A stretch of 43,438 nucleotides of DNA, taken from positions 1 to 43,438 of IMG/VR virus record IMGVR_UViG_2703718829_000008; one strand, 5' to 3'. Each line of letters starts with the position of its first letter. The first letter of the stretch is position 1. A model generated the notes under the pieces. That model saw only the letters and a list, made by a program, of their open reading frames with translations. It made no database searches and was not told the DNA's origin. The stretch is from a virus. Taxonomy: Duplodnaviria > Heunggongvirae > Uroviricota > Caudoviricetes. Below, one piece after another: positions 8,632 through 36,036 of this stretch. The translations under genes and the position numbers were made by a program.

Positions 8632-9554
8632 TAATACAGATGAACAGAAGGCGGCAATTCTTTATTCTTAAGCCTTATCCATGCGGAAAGATTTGTTGGT
8701 CCGTCTGGCTCATTGATATCAACATCTCGTGTGTGGTTGATTAAAACGTCTCTCGCCGTTCCGATAACATACGAGAACTCATGGCCGTAGTCGTAGCACC
8801 TGCCAGAATAGTTTGATTGAATGTGCTTTAGCGCCGGATACAGTTCGCGGAATAATGCCTGTGAGCGGTTGGCATAATCCCATAACCATACAAGGCTGTT
8901 TGCTTCTTTTGCAGAAAGCTCGTTGGTTTTCTTCTCTTGTTTGCCGATGAACTCACCTTCAAGTGGAACTCGAGCTGCAAGTGACAGTGCTTCGGCAAAC
9001 TGCTCCTCACTGATTTCTTTGTATGAACACCCAAAATGAGATTTCAGTGACGACCACATGGTGATCATCGCCTTAGCCTGTTTTTCTTTTGGCAGAGACT
9101 GACCTCGACTCATGACGAGTTGTTTAATGGCTTCCTGCTGTTCAGTGGTGATTTTCCCCGGCAACGCCTTTTTAGCTTTGCGTGGATTAACCACATGGCC
9201 TTTAGTCCAGTACTCGTAGAGCACATCGTCACACTCTTCCTGATACTGGATTACCTTGTCGCGGATTTCAGGACGGACTTTGTTAGGACTGATGCTGTTC
9301 AACCAAGCTGCCAATTTTCGTAAAGCCATACAAATCATGGCTTGCACCCCACCGGCAGAAGGTATGGTGATTTCCACCATACCCTTCGAGAAGCGTTGAG
9401 AAATCTTCTTATGTTGAGATTTCCAATCTAGCCCCATTCCCTCAACGATAGGTTTCATTGGGGTGTACGGTTCGCCGTTGTGATTGACAACATAAAGCTC
9501 TGCGCCGTGGAATGGTACATTGATAGTTGATACCGCTGTTGCTATACTTTTCAT
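8631..9554 (-). CDS. Antirepressor-like protein (AntA-type N-terminal domain)
   Basis: 307 aa; lies downstream of an Arc-like gene and divergent from an Mnt-like gene, as in P22 immI. Confidence 0.55.
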   Translation of the reverse strand: MKSIATAVSTINVPFHGAELYVVNHNGEPYTPMKPIVEGMGLDWKSQHKKISQRFSKGMVEITIPSAGGVQAMICMALRKLAAWLNSISPNKVRPEIRDKVIQYQEECDDVLYEYWTKGHVVNPRKAKKALPGKITTEQQEAIKQLVMSRGQSLPKEKQAKAMITMWSSLKSHFGCSYKEISEEQFAEALSLAARVPLEGEFIGKQEKKTNELSAKEANSLVWLWDYANRSQALFRELYPALKHIQSNYSGRCYDYGHEFSYVIGTARDVLINHTRDVDINEPDGPTNLSAWIRLKNKELPPSVHLY

Positions 9555-9620
9555 GTCAGTTTTTCCTCAATACTTACTGGCGATTTAAGCCCTAGATACT
9601 CGCAATATCTGGGGCTTTAC

Positions 9621-9767
9621 TCATTCTGGACAAACAATCCCGTCCTTAGCTACCGACTCCTTAAGCCTCCTCAACACCTCATTGCTGAATGACCGATCAT
9701 CCTTTTTCGCTGACTGCTCCAAAGCTTTTTCGAGCCATTCTGGCATCCTTAACGTTTTTACTTTCAT
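9621..9767 (-). CDS. Arc-like ribbon-helix-helix repressor (48 aa, below track cutoff)
   Basis: Hand translation MKVKTLRMPEWLEKALEQSAKKDDRSFSNEVLRRLKESVAKDGIVCPE; SD AGGAGC 4 nt upstream of ATG. Confidence 0.5.
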   Translation of the reverse strand: MKVKTLRMPEWLEKALEQSAKKDDRSFSNEVLRRLKESVAKDGIVCPE

Positions 9768-9780
9768 TTTCGCTCCTTTG

Positions 9781-9836
9781 GTATGCGGTACGCATACATA
9801 GTATGTAGGTACGCATTGATAGTCAATAGATACCTA
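9781..9836. promoter_or_regulatory. Divergent promoter/operator region between arc-like and mnt-like genes
   Basis: Three palindromes: GTATGC-n5-GCATAC (9781-9797), TACATA-G-TATGTA (9795-9807), ATTGA-TAG-TCAAT (9815-9827). Confidence 0.4.
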
Positions 9837-9872
9837 CATATCCTGTGGTAAAAAATTATTCAGGATACGCTG

Positions 9873-10115
9873 ATGTCTGAACGCAGGTACAAGAACCCAC
9901 AAGTTAATCTTCGACTTCCTGTGGAGATAAAGGATCGCCTAACCGCGTTAGCTGAGGCGAATGGCAGATCTTTAAATGCAGAAATGGTTGCAGCTCTAAG
10001 TGCGTGGGCAGAAGAAAATAAACATGTTCACTCACTTAGCCTTTCTTCCTTAACCGAAAGATTAATAGCTCTTGAGAGAGAGGTTGCAGCCCTTAAAGAA
10101 GCAAACATCAAGTAA
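9873..10115 (+). CDS. Mnt/Arc-family ribbon-helix-helix repressor
   Basis: 80 aa; 'LTALAEANGRSLNAEMV' resembles P22 Mnt 'AEANGRSMNSEL'; divergent from arc/ant. Confidence 0.6.
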   Translation: MSERRYKNPQVNLRLPVEIKDRLTALAEANGRSLNAEMVAALSAWAEENKHVHSLSLSSLTERLIALEREVAALKEANIK

Positions 10116-10138
10116 GAAGACGATATTACGAGGTTGCT

Positions 10139-10606
10139 ATGGCATGTCTTAGCAAGGAAGAAAATGAAATCATCAATGTAGAATTTAAAAAAGCATCAGC
10201 AGATGAGTTGCTGATAATCAAGAAATTAATTATCGATGTTAAGAACCATAAAGGGCTATACCAAGATGTCGTAAAGAATGGCGCAGACCTCTACAGTTCA
10301 AAACTTGACATCATGAGAGAAACCGGCTTAGAGGAGATGACCTCCGGTATTCTTGCGAGAACGCTTTGGGGTATCACGCGACCAGAAAAAGAGAACACAA
10401 GACACCTAAGGGTCGGGATTAATGAAGCTGAGTGGTGCTTTGTGGAATGCATATGTAGACACCCCGCTCACCGCCTTCTTCATGGAAAGAAATACGCCAT
10501 CCGCAAAGGAATGAAGATTGGTTTTTTCAAACACATCCACCCTGGACAACTTGTAGGGTGTGGATGTTTATCTAGCCCCATAATTCCAGGATTAAAAAAC
10601 ACTTGA
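10139..10606 (+). CDS. Hypothetical protein co-transcribed with mnt-like repressor
   Basis: 155 aa, AT-rich, SD GAGG upstream, 24 bp after mnt-like stop. Confidence 0.4.
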   Translation: MACLSKEENEIINVEFKKASADELLIIKKLIIDVKNHKGLYQDVVKNGADLYSSKLDIMRETGLEEMTSGILARTLWGITRPEKENTRHLRVGINEAEWCFVECICRHPAHRLLHGKKYAIRKGMKIGFFKHIHPGQLVGCGCLSSPIIPGLKNT

Positions 10607-10965
10607 TAGCGGCCGCAAAGCAGATTGCCACGAAGTTGTTTGCAAAAATACTCCATGACAAGTTAGGACTTGAATAAGTGCTCATGCCGTGCTGATAGCT
10701 CTACTAGCAACTTCATCGCTTCTACCGCGTCTGCCGAGGTTGATTTAGGTGACGCAACAATGGACCTGAGTGTGCTCTATAAACTACACAGGGATAGAGA
10801 ATATGCCAAATTTAGCTTTATCACGGCGGCTAAGTCTGTTTCATCATGGTTTGCGAGTTTGTCTGCTTCTCCTGGGGTATACCCACTCGCAACCAATCGT
10901 GCGTGCATCATCTCTTTGTAAGAGTGTTCAATTGCTTTCATGATAATAACCTATTGGTAATAACT

Positions 10966-10995
10966 TAAAAAAACCCACCTGACGGTGGGTTTTAT
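10966..10995. terminator. Bidirectional rho-independent terminator
   Basis: A7-CCCACC-TGAC-GGTGGG-T tract between convergent genes. Confidence 0.55.
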
Positions 10996-11414
10996 TAGTG
11001 CTTGTATAGGTTGAACTCTCTATCAAGCCATATAACAAAAAATGTCGATCCAAGACGATAACCAACCATGGCTTTCAAATCATCAAATCTAAAAGCCAAG
11101 AAATGATCTACGTCTTCCGTTATATGACTGGGGATACCTGCTTTAATTGCACACCTTGCAATCTTCTCAAATCCAAGCTTATGCCTACCTTGCTGCTTAA
11201 TCTCTGCCCATGTTAGTTGACTTAATCTGTATAATTTATCAGCTAAGCCAGCTTTCTCATCTTTTTGGCATTTCGTTATGCAGTGAGAGCTTTGGATGTA
11301 ACAGAATGAAAATTTCGGTTTCTTTTGATCTGAATTCCCCCCTGACTGCGGCCCTAACTTTAACTTACCTGTAGATTCAGCAGGGGGGATAATCCTTTTA
11401 GATTTTCTTGCCAT
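10995..11414 (-). CDS. Putative toxin partner of Panacea-domain protein
   Basis: Start taken at MARKSKR, 4 nt after upstream stop; basic N-terminal region; C-terminus (VGYRLGSTFFVIWLDREFNLYKH) reminiscent of RelE/YoeB-type strands. Confidence 0.35.
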   Translation of the reverse strand: MARKSKRIIPPAESTGKLKLGPQSGGNSDQKKPKFSFCYIQSSHCITKCQKDEKAGLADKLYRLSQLTWAEIKQQGRHKLGFEKIARCAIKAGIPSHITEDVDHFLAFRFDDLKAMVGYRLGSTFFVIWLDREFNLYKH

Positions 11415-11418
11415 CTCG

Positions 11419-11868
11419 TTAGTTAATCCGAGTTGCAAAGTACTCTGCCATCTCCTTAGAGCTAATTTCAGAACCACCAACACCCTCAATATAGTTTGAT
11501 CTCCATGGTGACTCTTCGTGTGTCATGTTCCTCAGTTTCCAGGCAGAAAATTGCCCAAAAACATCCCAGACTTCTTCTAATAGCTCTAACTGTTCTTCGC
11601 TGAATTTTTCAGCATCAAAAGACTCTGGAGAAGGGATAGCGCCATTACCATATTGTTTATAACGGCGATAAAGCTCAGGAACAACAGGGCCATGCATCCA
11701 GGCTTCCATCTTATTCTGAAAAAGAGGCTCGCCAAGCAACGCCAATGAAAAACCCTGAGCATAGTAAACAAGCTTTTGTAATTTTAAATTAGAGATTGTG
11801 TCACCGCTATCCTCGTCACACCGCGACAGGAAGTAGTCGGCGACATCAAAACAAGTAAGCATGAACAC
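11419..11868 (-). CDS. Panacea-domain (DUF4065, SocA/GepA-like) protein, putative antitoxin
   Basis: 149 aa; 'NLKLQKLVYYAQGFSLALLGEPLF...EAWMHGPVVPELY' matches the DUF4065 pattern as I recall it. Confidence 0.6.
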   Translation of the reverse strand: MFMLTCFDVADYFLSRCDEDSGDTISNLKLQKLVYYAQGFSLALLGEPLFQNKMEAWMHGPVVPELYRRYKQYGNGAIPSPESFDAEKFSEEQLELLEEVWDVFGQFSAWKLRNMTHEESPWRSNYIEGVGGSEISSKEMAEYFATRIN

Positions 11869-12286
11869 ACCTCCATCTTGATAGCCACAGCTAAGTATCC
11901 AACTATGTCAAATGTCATTTAATACTATAACAAAGCTATCAGCAATCCTTCGGAGGCTAACTTACAACCACTTTAGCGACATGTTTAAACCATTACGTTT
12001 CACATTTACTGCATTTTCGCTGAAGTTACCTATAAGGTAATGTCACATTTCCTGCAAGTTTCATGCAATGTTGAAAAGTGAGCTATTCACTTTTCTATGA
12101 CACCAAACACCAAAAATAGCACTTTTTGCTAAATCATTCGTCCAAGTTGTGGATGGTTTGTCGTTGACACGTTTTCACACACCACTCCACCAATAAAGTA
12201 TCATCTGCTATCCTACGCAAAACTAACTGTTGCGTGTTTTTTCTTCATTTAATGGGTAATTGAAATAACCAATACGGATCTCTAAA

Positions 12287-33242: not shown

Positions 33243-34694
33243 TCAGAATCCTCCTTTCTTCTTGGATTGCGGTTCCTCGCGTTCACGGCGGCGCATTTCA
33301 GCGGACTGTTGGTCTGTGTCATAAATAGCGCCATTTGCCTGAATGCAATACACCGTGCCGGTATTGCCATGACGATTGAGACGAAGGATTAGTTCGGTTT
33401 CACCAGGTGGAACACTGTCATCAAAAGCACCTTCACGATGGATCCCCACCCAATAATCGCAATCCTGTTCAATCTGCCCTGTATCTCGTGAGTCACTTGG
33501 TAATGGGCGTTTATTGGTTCGGCTTTCCAGTGCGCGGTTAAGCTGTGTCAGAAGCACAACAACGCAATCAAGCTCTTTGGCAAGGTTCTTCAGTCCTTTG
33601 GTGATCATGCCGTAAGCAAGGTCGTTACGATCGGCCTTTTCAGCGGTCATTAGTGTCAGGTAATCGACCAGAATCATGCCAACACATCCTTTTTCTCGCT
33701 TGATTCGACGGCTTTCGCTGACGATTTGAGCCAGAGATAATCCCGGCGTGTCGTCGATGTAAAGCAGGTCGATTTCACTCAAGCGATTGGCTGTTTCGAT
33801 CGCCCTGTTGAAGTCACCATCGTAATCACCCTGATAGCCGTCATCAGCGTCATTTGTCGCCGGAAGGTAAAAAATATTCGGGTTAACACCAGACTTCTGC
33901 CCTACCAGTTTTTCCAGTATCTGGTCACCTGGCATTTCAAGGCTGAACATAAGAGCAGGCTTTTTCTCATGCACTGCGCAGTTGATTGCCATCTGGCTGT
34001 ATAGCGTCGTTTTCCCCATCTTAGGGCGAGCGCCAATGACAAACAAAGAGCCTTTCACCAGACCTTTCGGTGACAGCATCCTGTCCAGCGATGGGATCCC
34101 TGTGCTCATTCCTCGTTGTTCGCCTGACGGGTCAAAACGCTTCTCAAGGTCGCTAACCCAGTCTTCCATGACCTCACCAAATGAGCGAAGTCCGCGACGC
34201 GATCCGGTTTTTGCATGGTCTGTCAGTTGCGTGAAAATCGCCTGAATAGCTTCGTACTTCTGCGTTGCAGTCATTCCGTTGCGGGAATAGAGCAATTCCG
34301 TCGCTTCAGTCATGCGGTTGATGGCGTAGCGTTCCATTGCGGTTTCACGAACCTGCATTGCATAGGCAACGATGTTTGCTGCGCTTGGCGTGTTCTTTGC
34401 GATCTCAGCGATATAAGCAAAACCGCCAACAGACGCCGTTAACGATTTACGCTCCAGTTCATCGAAAAGCGTCAGGCCATCTACTGGCTTTTGCTCCCGG
34501 TGCATTCTGGTTATTTCTTCGAAAAGGATTTTGTGTGGTCGGCTGTAAAATGAATCAGGCTTCAGCATCGCCAGAACTTTCTGGACGCGCTCACTGCTGT
34601 CATCATCCAGAAGCAATCCACCAATCACCGCCTGCTCTGCCTCGATGCTATGGGGCGGCGCATAAAAATTATCGGTCATCGTGTTCACCCTCAC
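33243..34694 (-). CDS. Replicative DNA helicase (DnaB-like)
   Basis: 483 aa; Walker A 'GARPKMGKT'; DnaB N-terminal 'PHSIEAEQAVIGGLL'. Confidence 0.8.
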   Translation of the reverse strand: MRVNTMTDNFYAPPHSIEAEQAVIGGLLLDDDSSERVQKVLAMLKPDSFYSRPHKILFEEITRMHREQKPVDGLTLFDELERKSLTASVGGFAYIAEIAKNTPSAANIVAYAMQVRETAMERYAINRMTEATELLYSRNGMTATQKYEAIQAIFTQLTDHAKTGSRRGLRSFGEVMEDWVSDLEKRFDPSGEQRGMSTGIPSLDRMLSPKGLVKGSLFVIGARPKMGKTTLYSQMAINCAVHEKKPALMFSLEMPGDQILEKLVGQKSGVNPNIFYLPATNDADDGYQGDYDGDFNRAIETANRLSEIDLLYIDDTPGLSLAQIVSESRRIKREKGCVGMILVDYLTLMTAEKADRNDLAYGMITKGLKNLAKELDCVVVLLTQLNRALESRTNKRPLPSDSRDTGQIEQDCDYWVGIHREGAFDDSVPPGETELILRLNRHGNTGTVYCIQANGAIYDTDQQSAEMRRREREEPQSKKKGGF

Positions 34695-35559
34695 GAACTT
34701 TCAGGTAGGTATTATCGTTAAGCAGGAAATCAAATCCCTTTTTGTGCCAGACGGTTCCGCGATGATGGTTTGGGCGCTCCTCGAACATCCATCGGCAATT
34801 TTCTCCTACGTAGCTCAAATAATTTCTCCAGTCCTGCATCGTGAACCCATGCCCGTCAAGCTGGCGGGTTATCACTCCGGCTTTGCGCCAGAACGTTCGG
34901 ATCTGGTTTTTACGCTTGTCATTCAGTGCGCGGATTCTTGGCGCTTCAGGAAGGATTTCGTGGTAAGCATCGACAACATCCTGACAGCTAACGGAAGGTT
35001 TTTTCTTGTCAGACTTTTTGTCTGCTGTGGCACTCTCTAATACGTCAGTATTAGAGATATTATTTATATTATTGTTTATGGACAACCGTTGGACAACCGT
35101 TGGACAATCTCCGCTGAGATCCGCGCCATTACTGGTGTTTGCGTTGGACAACCGTTGGACAACCGTTGGACAATTTTTTGCCTGAAAATCATCATATTTA
35201 ACGATTGTAAACAGGCTAAATCTCTTCCCCATCGAGCAAATATTAAGCATCCCTTTCGACTCAAAAGTCCGTAATAAGCTCCGAACTTTGTTGTCAGGGA
35301 TGAATGTTTCTCTGACCAGAGACGGGCGTCCAGTTATCATCTGACCGCGATCAACAGTTATCGGACCGATATCCGTATTGACGACAGTAGATTCGTGATT
35401 AGCCTTGAGGATTAAGTGAATCCAAAGATGTACTGCCTGAGAGTCCTTATAGAGCCTGCTGTCCATAAACTGGCGGTGTATAGAGACATACCCCATACTG
35501 GATGCCTCCTGATGTTGTACAGGGTTATGCCTGTAATCAGCTAACTTAACGACGCCCAT
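34669..35559 (-). CDS. Replication initiator (lambda O / P22 gp18-like) containing the origin
   Basis: 296 aa; encodes repeated CPTVVQRLS peptides from the iterons; directly upstream of the helicase. Confidence 0.6.
   Translation of the reverse strand: MGVVKLADYRHNPVQHQEASSMGYVSIHRQFMDSRLYKDSQAVHLWIHLILKANHESTVVNTDIGPITVDRGQMITGRPSLVRETFIPDNKVRSLLRTFESKGMLNICSMGKRFSLFTIVKYDDFQAKNCPTVVQRLSNANTSNGADLSGDCPTVVQRLSINNNINNISNTDVLESATADKKSDKKKPSVSCQDVVDAYHEILPEAPRIRALNDKRKNQIRTFWRKAGVITRQLDGHGFTMQDWRNYLSYVGENCRWMFEERPNHHRGTVWHKKGFDFLLNDNTYLKVREGEHDDR
35050..35174. repeat. Replication origin: two clusters of tandem 11-bp iterons (GGACAACCGTT) plus AT-rich segment
   Basis: Iterons at 35080-35108 and 35146-35174; AT-rich 35050-35079 on the O-downstream side, as in lambda ori. 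Confidence 0.6.
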
Positions 35560-35739
35560 GTTTCACTCCTGCTTTGGCTAGTCTGTAAACACCAACAAGG
35601 CGCTCTGCGAACGCCCTGTTATTTGCTGCGGCTACCACTAATCCCTCAGGTGAATCAGGGTGTCGAATCTCTTCTTTTTCCTGGTATTTCTTACGACGTT
35701 TTGTCATAATGACTCCTGTAGATTGATCCAGTAATGACC

Positions 35740-36036
35740 TCAGAACTCTATCTGGATTTGTTCAGAACGCTCGGTTGCCGCCGGGCGTTTTTTCTTTGTG
35801 ATTCCATCAAGCGCATACTTAAAAGCCCTGCTAATCGGACTGATGTCTGATGCCATTCCAAAAGCACACAGGACCGAAGCAATAAATCTCCAGTCCGTTC
35901 TGCTTATCTTCGATTCATGACAGCCAATCATCTTTGCCAGACCGCGCTGGGTAAGCGTTGACAGGTTGATAAGTAAATCTGTTTCTGCGCGATCAACGTC
36001 GCGCTGTGATAGTTTGCTGTAACTTGTTTGTTCCAT
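35740..36036 (-). CDS. cII: CII-like transcriptional activator
   Basis: 98 aa; C-terminus KKKRPAATERSEQIQIEF matches lambda CII; HTH present. Confidence 0.8.
   Translation of the reverse strand: MEQTSYSKLSQRDVDRAETDLLINLSTLTQRGLAKMIGCHESKISRTDWRFIASVLCAFGMASDISPISRAFKYALDGITKKKRPAATERSEQIQIEF

Follow-up and report, generated by a model that had tools for sequence, protein, structure and literature searches.

Repeat array in the initiator gene

The DNA analysed here, called the window in the following, is the whole 43,438-nt stretch of a Caudoviricetes virus record (IMG/VR IMGVR_UViG_2703718829_000008), and all positions are given in the numbering of this window. The gene of interest lies on the - strand and encodes a replication initiator. 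The part of this gene which codes for the linker between the two domains of the protein harbours an array of short tandem repeats, followed by an A+T-rich tract and a palindrome (Table 1). There is a high probability that this array is a replication origin and at the same time the binding array of the initiator. Judged from sequence comparisons, the element is almost certainly the theta-replication origin of a lambdoid phage or prophage with a replication module of the HK022 / L / Sf6 / HK620 type.

The sequence GGACAACCGTT GGACAACCGTT GGACAAT is found both at 35080-35108 and at 35146-35174, with a gap of 37 bp (35109-35145) in between, and the two clusters of tandem 11-bp repeats described in the initial annotation were recovered by two tools. 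Tandem Repeats Finder reported arrays at 35079-35107 and 35142-35173 with a period of 11, 100% matches, and 2.6 and 2.9 copies, respectively. A repeat search yielded two identical 30-nt blocks (iteron blocks 1 and 2) offset by 66 bp. Six TGGACAA cores start on the + strand at 35079, 35090, 35101, 35145, 35156, and 35167, which corresponds to a unit spacing of 11,11,44,11,11. As 44 equals 4 x 11, all six units stand in a single 11-bp register, and the spacer between the blocks may contain a degenerate fourth unit, AAACACCAGTA. In gene sense the repeat reads TGTCCAACGGT. The pattern TGGACAAYNNNTGGACAAY matched four times in the window, every time within this array, and not once in 100 dinucleotide-preserving shuffles. 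An internal dyad symmetry of the units was considered on account of CAAC-G-GTTG at the unit junctions of the window; this is absent in phages L and ENT47670, and the units were treated as direct repeats.

As 11 bp cannot be divided into whole codons, the three cores of one block fall in three reading frames, where they are read as Cys-Pro, Val-Val-Gln, and Leu-Ser. The origin DNA thereby encodes the linker of the initiator, in which the predicted duplication of the peptide CPTVVQRLS was indeed found, at amino acids (aa) 130-138 and 152-160. In gene direction the A+T-rich tract follows the repeats on their 3' side, and it encodes the Asn/Ile-rich peptide INNNINNI. With a G+C fraction of 0.175, positions 35040-35079 form the lowest point of the profile from 34500 to 35700, which bears out the AT-rich flank that had been noted on the downstream side of the gene. 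At the equivalent place in about 40 related loci, tracts of 13-27 nt with 73-96% A+T occur. The palindrome directly beyond had not been mentioned in the initial annotation.

Table 1. Features of the predicted origin and of the adjoining genes in the window
Feature	Position	Strand	Description
Predicted origin	35034-35174		repeat array, A+T-rich tract, and palindrome
Iteron block 1 (first in gene direction)	35145-35174	-	three 11-bp units, TTGTCCAACGG x2 + TTGTCCA
Inter-block spacer	35109-35144	-	sets the block offset at 66 bp (6 x 11)
Iteron block 2	35079-35108	-	three 11-bp units, same as block 1
A+T-rich tract	35058-35078		21 nt, one G, 95% A+T, TATTATTTATATTATTGTTTA; presumed DNA-unwinding element
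Palindrome	35034-35057		TCTCTAATAC-(TGAC/gtca)-GTATTAGAGA; perfect 10-bp arms, 4-nt centre
Replication initiator gene	34669-35559	-	296 aa; predicted winged-helix N-domain aa ~23-128, linker aa 129-188, helical C-domain aa 189-293
DnaB-like helicase gene (P22 gene 12 type)	33243-34679	-	Pfam DnaB E 3.5e-31, DnaB_C E 3e-60; overlaps the end of the initiator gene
53-aa open reading frame	35546-35707	-	phrog_1331; 14-nt overlap with the initiator start

Identity with annotated phage origins

The initiator gene is 98.8-99% identical at the nucleotide level to those of HK106 and mEp234 and to gene 43 of Sf6, and the protein shares 81% of its amino acids with its counterpart in phage L and 66% with that in HK022. 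Over its full length (residues 1-296) it matches phrog_345, described as 'replication initiation O-like', with E 2.6e-84. In Pfam the sole match was DUF7376, which stayed under the cut-off of this family, NCBIfam yielded none, and a profile search of the sequences in the Protein Data Bank (PDB) gave no homologue of the initiator at E < 0.1.

In the Sf6 record a rep_origin feature is annotated which maps exactly onto 35079-35174 of the window, with iteron block 1 as its upstream and block 2 as its downstream part. It carries the label 'putative; repeat region reminiscent of the phage lambda origin; similar to phage HK620'. The O gene of VT2-Sakai is annotated with 'ori iteron 1/2', two 30-bp features which are 66 bp apart and of which the first corresponds to block 1. 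A rep_origin feature is also contained in the record of phage L, and in the genome paper of this phage six 11-bp repeats, TGTCCAACGGA, are named as the likely origin and set against the four repeats of about 20 bp in P22 and lambda (PMC8022706). The array of the window is thus a rediscovery of an origin type already annotated as putative. The origins of Sf6 (gene 43), HK620, L (gene 18), and mEp/HK106 share with it the TGTCCAACGG repeat, the 3 + 3 layout, the A+T tract, the palindrome, and a DnaB-like helicase as partner. Only point changes, located at inter-core sites and within the spacer, distinguish them from it, and the array is the same element as these putative origins. The proposal in the initial annotation, origin iterons inside the initiator gene in a layout like that of the lambda origin, agrees with the Sf6, VT2-Sakai, and L annotations as well as with the comparative tests described below.

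Comparative evidence

Polymorphism was studied in the window and 80 IMG/VR loci with 98-99% identity to it, that is in 81 sequences with 70 distinct haplotypes. Since the IMG/VR scan gave only loci of this high identity it informs on polymorphism, not on diversity, and the p-values are indicative only because the 81 sequences are related to one another. In the cores (TGTCCAAC, or TGTCCA in the last unit) 2 of 46 sites were variable, as compared to 7 of 16 inter-core sites (Fisher p = 6e-4). The spacer proved to be the most polymorphic part of the gene, with 10 of 33 sites variable versus about 8-10% in the two domains. In the A+T tract together with the palindrome (gene nt 482-526) no variable site was found among 45, versus 84 of 846 elsewhere (p = 0.017). 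The reading of the 11-bp units in three frames and the lower polymorphism of the cores as compared to the inter-core sites argue for selection on the repeat DNA rather than on the encoded peptide.

More distant loci were obtained by a genome scan for prophages with an alignment of 7 sequences. Nine phages keep the layout of 11,11,44,11,11 (three units, a 33-bp spacer, and three units), and so do about 40 prophages of various species of Enterobacterales. Phages which share this layout, the A+T tract, and the palindrome include L, ENT47670, HK022, VT2-Sakai, two Klebsiella phages, and Erwinia phage 59. For the core itself at least eight families can be distinguished, TGTCCAAC, TGTCCAGC, TGTCCGr, (G/T)TGCCAACA, TTACCAGCA, AATCCAAr, TTCCCAGAAG, and GCCAACGAAA; the forms TACCAGCA, AATCCAA, and TCCCAGAAG are among those that occur.

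HK022 and VT2-Sakai belong to the same family as the window and have the same two 30-bp blocks 66 bp apart. In their C-domain, A+T tract, and palindrome they are 98-99% identical to the window, whereas their N-domain is only 45% identical and their iterons differ (core TACCAGCA versus TGTCCAAC in the window), which implies a different origin specificity. ENT47670 is the converse chimera, with an N-domain of 79% identity, the same core as the window, and a C-domain of 53% identity. A further chimera is found in Erwinia phage vB_EhrS_59 (locus L009, 1138-2088), where an N-domain of the window type and 2 x 3 iterons of 11 bp are joined to a lambda O C-domain (70% identity, E 6e-63) and the chimeric initiator gene is followed by a loader gene of the lambda P type. 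When lambda and P22 are counted in, each of the four possible pairings of N-domain and C-domain types occurs. It follows from these natural chimeras that N-domain and iterons move as one unit, and that the C-domain goes along with its partner, the helicase or loader.

Within the recognition helix, residues 93-94 (codons at about 35278-35283, - strand) vary in step with the iteron bases that precede CCA on its 5' side: (K/R)S is found with TGT-CCA, KY with (G/T)TG-CCA, and QY with TT(A/C)-CCAG. The N-domain of the Chronis type, which is 64% identical to that of HK022 and 47% to that of the window, yet combines KS with a TGTCC core, and thus partly breaks the confounding of this covariation by shared ancestry. 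Residues 93-94 may be a specificity determinant, and they may constitute a simple code for the bases 5' of CCA.

A protein search yielded 1606 relatives of the initiator at E <= 0.001. Some distant relatives of the N-domain have arrays with an 11-bp period within the gene just past the domain, followed by A+T-rich sequence. Among these are orf46 of Staphylococcus phage PVL (L093, 1827-1929; AACATCAAAAC about nine times), Vibrio phage 1.085.O (L095, 1813-1867), an SPP1-like Bacillus phage, and gene 38 of SPP1 itself (L094 and L152). In-phase iterons with an 11-bp period thus seem to be a general mode of this N-domain family, as far as can be read from the sequences.

The number of blocks is itself polymorphic. 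Initiator alleles of 274/277, 296/299, and 318 aa occur, which differ by steps of exactly 22 aa or 66 bp, and the DNA of such alleles (L097-L100) contains three, six, or nine TGTCCA cores in register, that is one, two, or three blocks. Three blocks are present in P0001-P0022 (318 aa) and one block in P0032-P0042 (274 aa) and P0098 (277 aa); the two-block form is the commonest, with clusters of 1557 and 669 member sequences. For one of the one-block alleles, from Shigella flexneri CP000266, the prophage is interrupted between cro and cII by a transposase gene of the IS4 family, and its origin may therefore be unselected. In P0039 (292 aa, one Logan contig) the linker is read in another frame (IVQRLSNGCPTQTPVMARLSAEIVQRLS) before the protein returns to frame, with the DNA repeats kept, which means either that the linker peptide is dispensable or that the contig contains an assembly error.

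Relation to lambda, P22, and SPP1

The origins of lambda and P22 resemble that of the window in being located inside the initiator gene, between a DNA-binding N-domain and a partner-binding C-domain, and in the order of iterons, A+T-rich tract, and palindrome along the gene. They differ in having four iterons of about 19-20 bp at a spacing of 20/24/23, which in lambda contain an internal dyad symmetry, as compared to six 11-bp direct repeats with no conserved dyad symmetry in the window. The proteins differ as well. The family of lambda O, PF04492, gave no match to the initiator of the window, also when the isolated N-domain was tried at E <= 10, whereas lambda O and P22 gp18 were readily detected in the same library (E 5.7e-36 and E 6.9e-38). 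The N-domains of these two are 43% identical to each other (E 1e-29). By BLASTP nothing better than E 4 was obtained between the initiator of the window and lambda O, and the similarity to P22 gp18 is restricted to the C-domain (25% over 116 aa, E 1e-4), a likeness that fits with the DnaB-like helicase gene which follows both initiators. The term O-like used for the initiator in the initial annotation is hence appropriate for function and layout, not for the N-domain, in which no similarity to either lambda O or P22 gp18 could be detected. Likewise, the comparison with P22 gene 18 and lambda O that had been suggested holds for the shared layout as an analogy; homology of the N-domains was not detected and the iterons differ. 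The element of the window is thus analogous, not homologous, to the origins of lambda and P22, and L, Sf6, HK620, HK022, VT2-Sakai, and SPP1 gp38 are the right comparators.

Residues 20-127 of the initiator align by BLASTP with residues 2-112 of SPP1 gp38 (26% identity over 111 aa, E 4e-12), and PHROG profiles named 'DnaD-like helicase loader' match at aa ~18-186 with E 4e-23 to 1e-9. The N-domain is a predicted winged-helix domain related to that of gp38. SPP1 gp38, the replisome organizer of this phage, is an experimentally established origin binder which binds the direct repeats of oriL inside its own gene 38, adjacent to an unwinding element rich in A+T, in a replication system that has been reconstituted in vitro (PMC6316719). 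As in the window, the direct repeats lie in the initiator's own gene straight after the N-domain and are followed by an A+T-rich element, and the helicase is of the DnaB family. SPP1 differs in having a separate loader, gp39, another C-domain, and a second origin, oriR, and its repeats are of other sequence and number, with no 3 + 3 or 66-bp pattern seen. The initiator of the SPP1-like phage 049ML001 contains a C-terminal Phg_2220_C domain; neither this nor a DnaB_2 domain was found in the initiator of the window by the Pfam scan. No sequence similarity was detected to RepA_N-type plasmid initiators of Gram-positive bacteria (for example staphylococcal pSK41 RepA, PDB 4pql/4pt7/4pta), which have other partner proteins and another host range and can be compared by analogy only.

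The palindrome

A palindrome with arms of 9-11 bp is present at the same place in nearly all related loci, with the centre C-T(A/G)A(C/A)-G conserved and the encoded peptide varying, from ISNTDVLES in the window to LLPNGSKY in the Chronis type. By our own estimate, about 0.2% of 90-nt stretches should contain a perfect palindrome of 9 bp or more. Folded as single-stranded DNA, the region forms a hairpin within the minimum free energy structure (-7.9 kcal/mol, z -4.5). When 22 distinct variants were aligned on their centres, 96.4% of the arm-pair cells were Watson-Crick pairs, a figure inflated by the choice of the best palindrome per 90-nt stretch as centre; shifting the 3' partner by 1-3 columns left only 28-46% of the cells paired. 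Double changes occurred at all ten pairs of the arms and one-sided changes at none, and the covariation score of 0.881 compares with a shuffle mean of 0.205, with no shuffle out of 500 reaching as high.

Such covariation could in principle stem from an element that acts at the RNA level and lies outside the origin, such as a hairpin in the initiator mRNA or an antisense terminator on the + strand. A consensus scan in fact calls the + strand terminator-like, with a stem of 10 pairs followed by TATTATTTAT, and in the record of phage L two antisense terminators are annotated just downstream of the rep_origin, one of which appears to coincide with the palindrome (mapped without a check of the sequence). 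Yet only three of the ten pairs in the stem are G-C, none of the one-sided changes which would represent the G-U intermediates common in RNA helices was found among the 22 variants, and Rfam gave no match, neither here nor anywhere else in the window. Also the location speaks against it, since in the lambda and P22 origins a palindrome occupies the equivalent position right after the A+T tract. An RNA-level element is thus unlikely, and because of the missing G-T/G-U intermediates and the match in position with the lambda and P22 origin palindromes an element which acts at the DNA level, that is a hairpin, a cruciform, or a dyad site, is favoured. With its conserved centre and free arms, such a hairpin or cruciform may serve to load the DnaB-like helicase or to allow priming at the border of the open origin. 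A joint reading, with the palindrome as a structure-specific DNA signal and residues 93-94 as a readable iteron code, is a tentative suggestion which we regard as rather doubtful in its entirety.

Alternative explanations and proposed mechanism

The repeats might also serve as sites for a protein other than the initiator, for example host DnaA or another regulator of the phage. By eye, TTGTCCAAC agrees with the DnaA box TTATCCACA at 6 of 9 positions (no tool was used for this comparison), and TTGTCC / TGGACA in the repeats resemble a -35 element in promoter-like hexamer matches. The sites of a conserved host protein, however, should not differ as the cores do among phages whose hosts are identical or related (TACCAGCA, TGCCAACA, AATCCAA, and others), and due to this variation the DnaA box and the promoter were rejected as readings of the repeats. 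Moreover, the cores covary with the recognition helix of the initiator and move with its N-domain in the chimeras, and the homologous SPP1 gp38 binds the repeats of its own gene, all of which makes another binding protein very improbable.

Hardly credible, too, is the notion that the repeats have no function as DNA and only represent a duplicated low-complexity protein linker, CPTVVQRLS x2, which arose by slippage or unequal recombination. A single hexamer would then not be expected in three reading frames, as results from the 11-bp period, nor would TGTCCA stay fixed with the residues at the unit junctions changing freely (V/D/A/N) and the cores being less polymorphic than the inter-core sites. 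In about 40 species the spacing stays at 11,11,44,11,11 despite differing peptides, and P0039 keeps the DNA repeats while the frame of the linker differs. What this explanation does account for is the number of one to three 22-aa blocks among natural alleles, as would arise in a slippage-prone sequence, and the structural model of the protein: the AlphaFold2 (AF2) model shows a confident N-domain (aa 23-128), a confident helical C-domain, and between them a low-confidence linker (predicted local distance difference test, pLDDT, <50 at aa 129-188) that includes the residues for which the iterons, the A+T tract, and the palindrome code and is predicted to be disordered. CRISPR arrays consist of repeats of about 23-55 bp with unique spacers of similar length, are non-coding, and are usually near cas genes; despite the two repeated blocks with a unique stretch in between, a small CRISPR-like array, raised in the initial annotation only as a caution, is refuted by the repeat anatomy, that is 11-bp tandem units in two blocks inside an open reading frame and no unique repeat-sized spacers, and no cas genes are among the neighbouring genes.

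Several points have to be weighed against an origin to which the initiator binds. The origin features in the records of the related phages carry the label 'putative', and the literature searched contains no binding, footprinting, or origin-function experiment on this allele. In the covariation of protein and iterons, linkage and common descent are confounding factors, as the N-domain and the iterons are physically adjacent. One-block alleles are found in genomes, so six units are not obviously required. The AF2 model was calculated from a shallow alignment in which all sequences are at least 71% identical, its mean pLDDT is 67, and a Foldseek search with it gave no match at E <= 1e-3. A stoichiometry of one monomer per unit is a guess, and the part of the palindrome in the origin is a proposed role only.

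For the origin and binding array, which in our view remains the most probable function of the repeats, we infer the following mechanism from anatomy, conservation, covariation, and the homology to SPP1 gp38. The winged-helix N-domain of the initiator would bind the six direct repeats with the core TGTCCAAC, presumably with one N-domain per repeat unit. As the six repeats stand in one 11-bp register, the bound proteins would be placed on one face of the helix and could form an O-some-like nucleoprotein complex. This complex would destabilise the adjoining A+T tract, and the C-domain would recruit the DnaB-like helicase of the phage, the product of the next gene and presumed partner of this domain. 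The palindrome beyond the A+T tract would probably border the opened region as a DNA hairpin or cruciform.

For annotation, the coordinates in Table 1 mark the predicted origin and the two genes of the replication module and avoid a false repeat or CRISPR call. The origin class is widespread, and Shiga toxin (Stx) phages, for example VT2-Sakai, carry it as well; the literature searched did not yield a biochemical study of this class. With its variants of N-domain and iterons, its chimeras of N- and C-domains, and its alleles of one to three blocks it would form a compact system in which to study the evolution of origin specificity; the gain is an incremental one. The covariation of the palindrome, the correlation with the recognition helix, and the polymorphism in block copy number are small additions of which no description was found in the literature searched.

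Neighbouring genes and wider context

The helicase gene is located directly downstream of the initiator gene and overlaps it, with no separate loader gene in between. Its start was placed by analogy with Sf6 gene 44 (1437 nt, 11-nt overlap); the mechanical open reading frame reaches 34694. Upstream of the initiator, the - strand contains the 53-aa open reading frame, cII (PF05269), and a cro-like gene, and a cI-type repressor gene is divergently oriented on the + strand. The gene neighbourhood is that of the early-right operon of a lambdoid phage.

The 53-aa open reading frame is the counterpart of Sf6 gene 42 and HK97 gene 53 and apparently, by position, also of P22 orf48. The pair of this small frame and the initiator recurs where annotated or called, that is in Sf6, ST160, L, VT2-Sakai, both Klebsiella phages, P22, and the loci L097-L100. 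At 35764-35791 on the + strand, opposite the 3' end of the cII-like gene and in antisense orientation to it, there is a strong hairpin of 12 pairs (6 G-C) which is followed by a T run and resembles an intrinsic terminator. It sits where the terminator of an oop-like antisense RNA is expected and has no match in Rfam.

The window as a whole is a mosaic with a little-sampled structural module. No record of the phage collection covers more than 13% of positions 1-25000, with the exception of the stretch from 8640 to 12226, for which the ant/mnt/arc (immI-like) region of phiv205-1 and Emek gave about 98% identity. In the right half, the matches are the early regions of HK106, mEp506, and HK022, at 96-97% identity.

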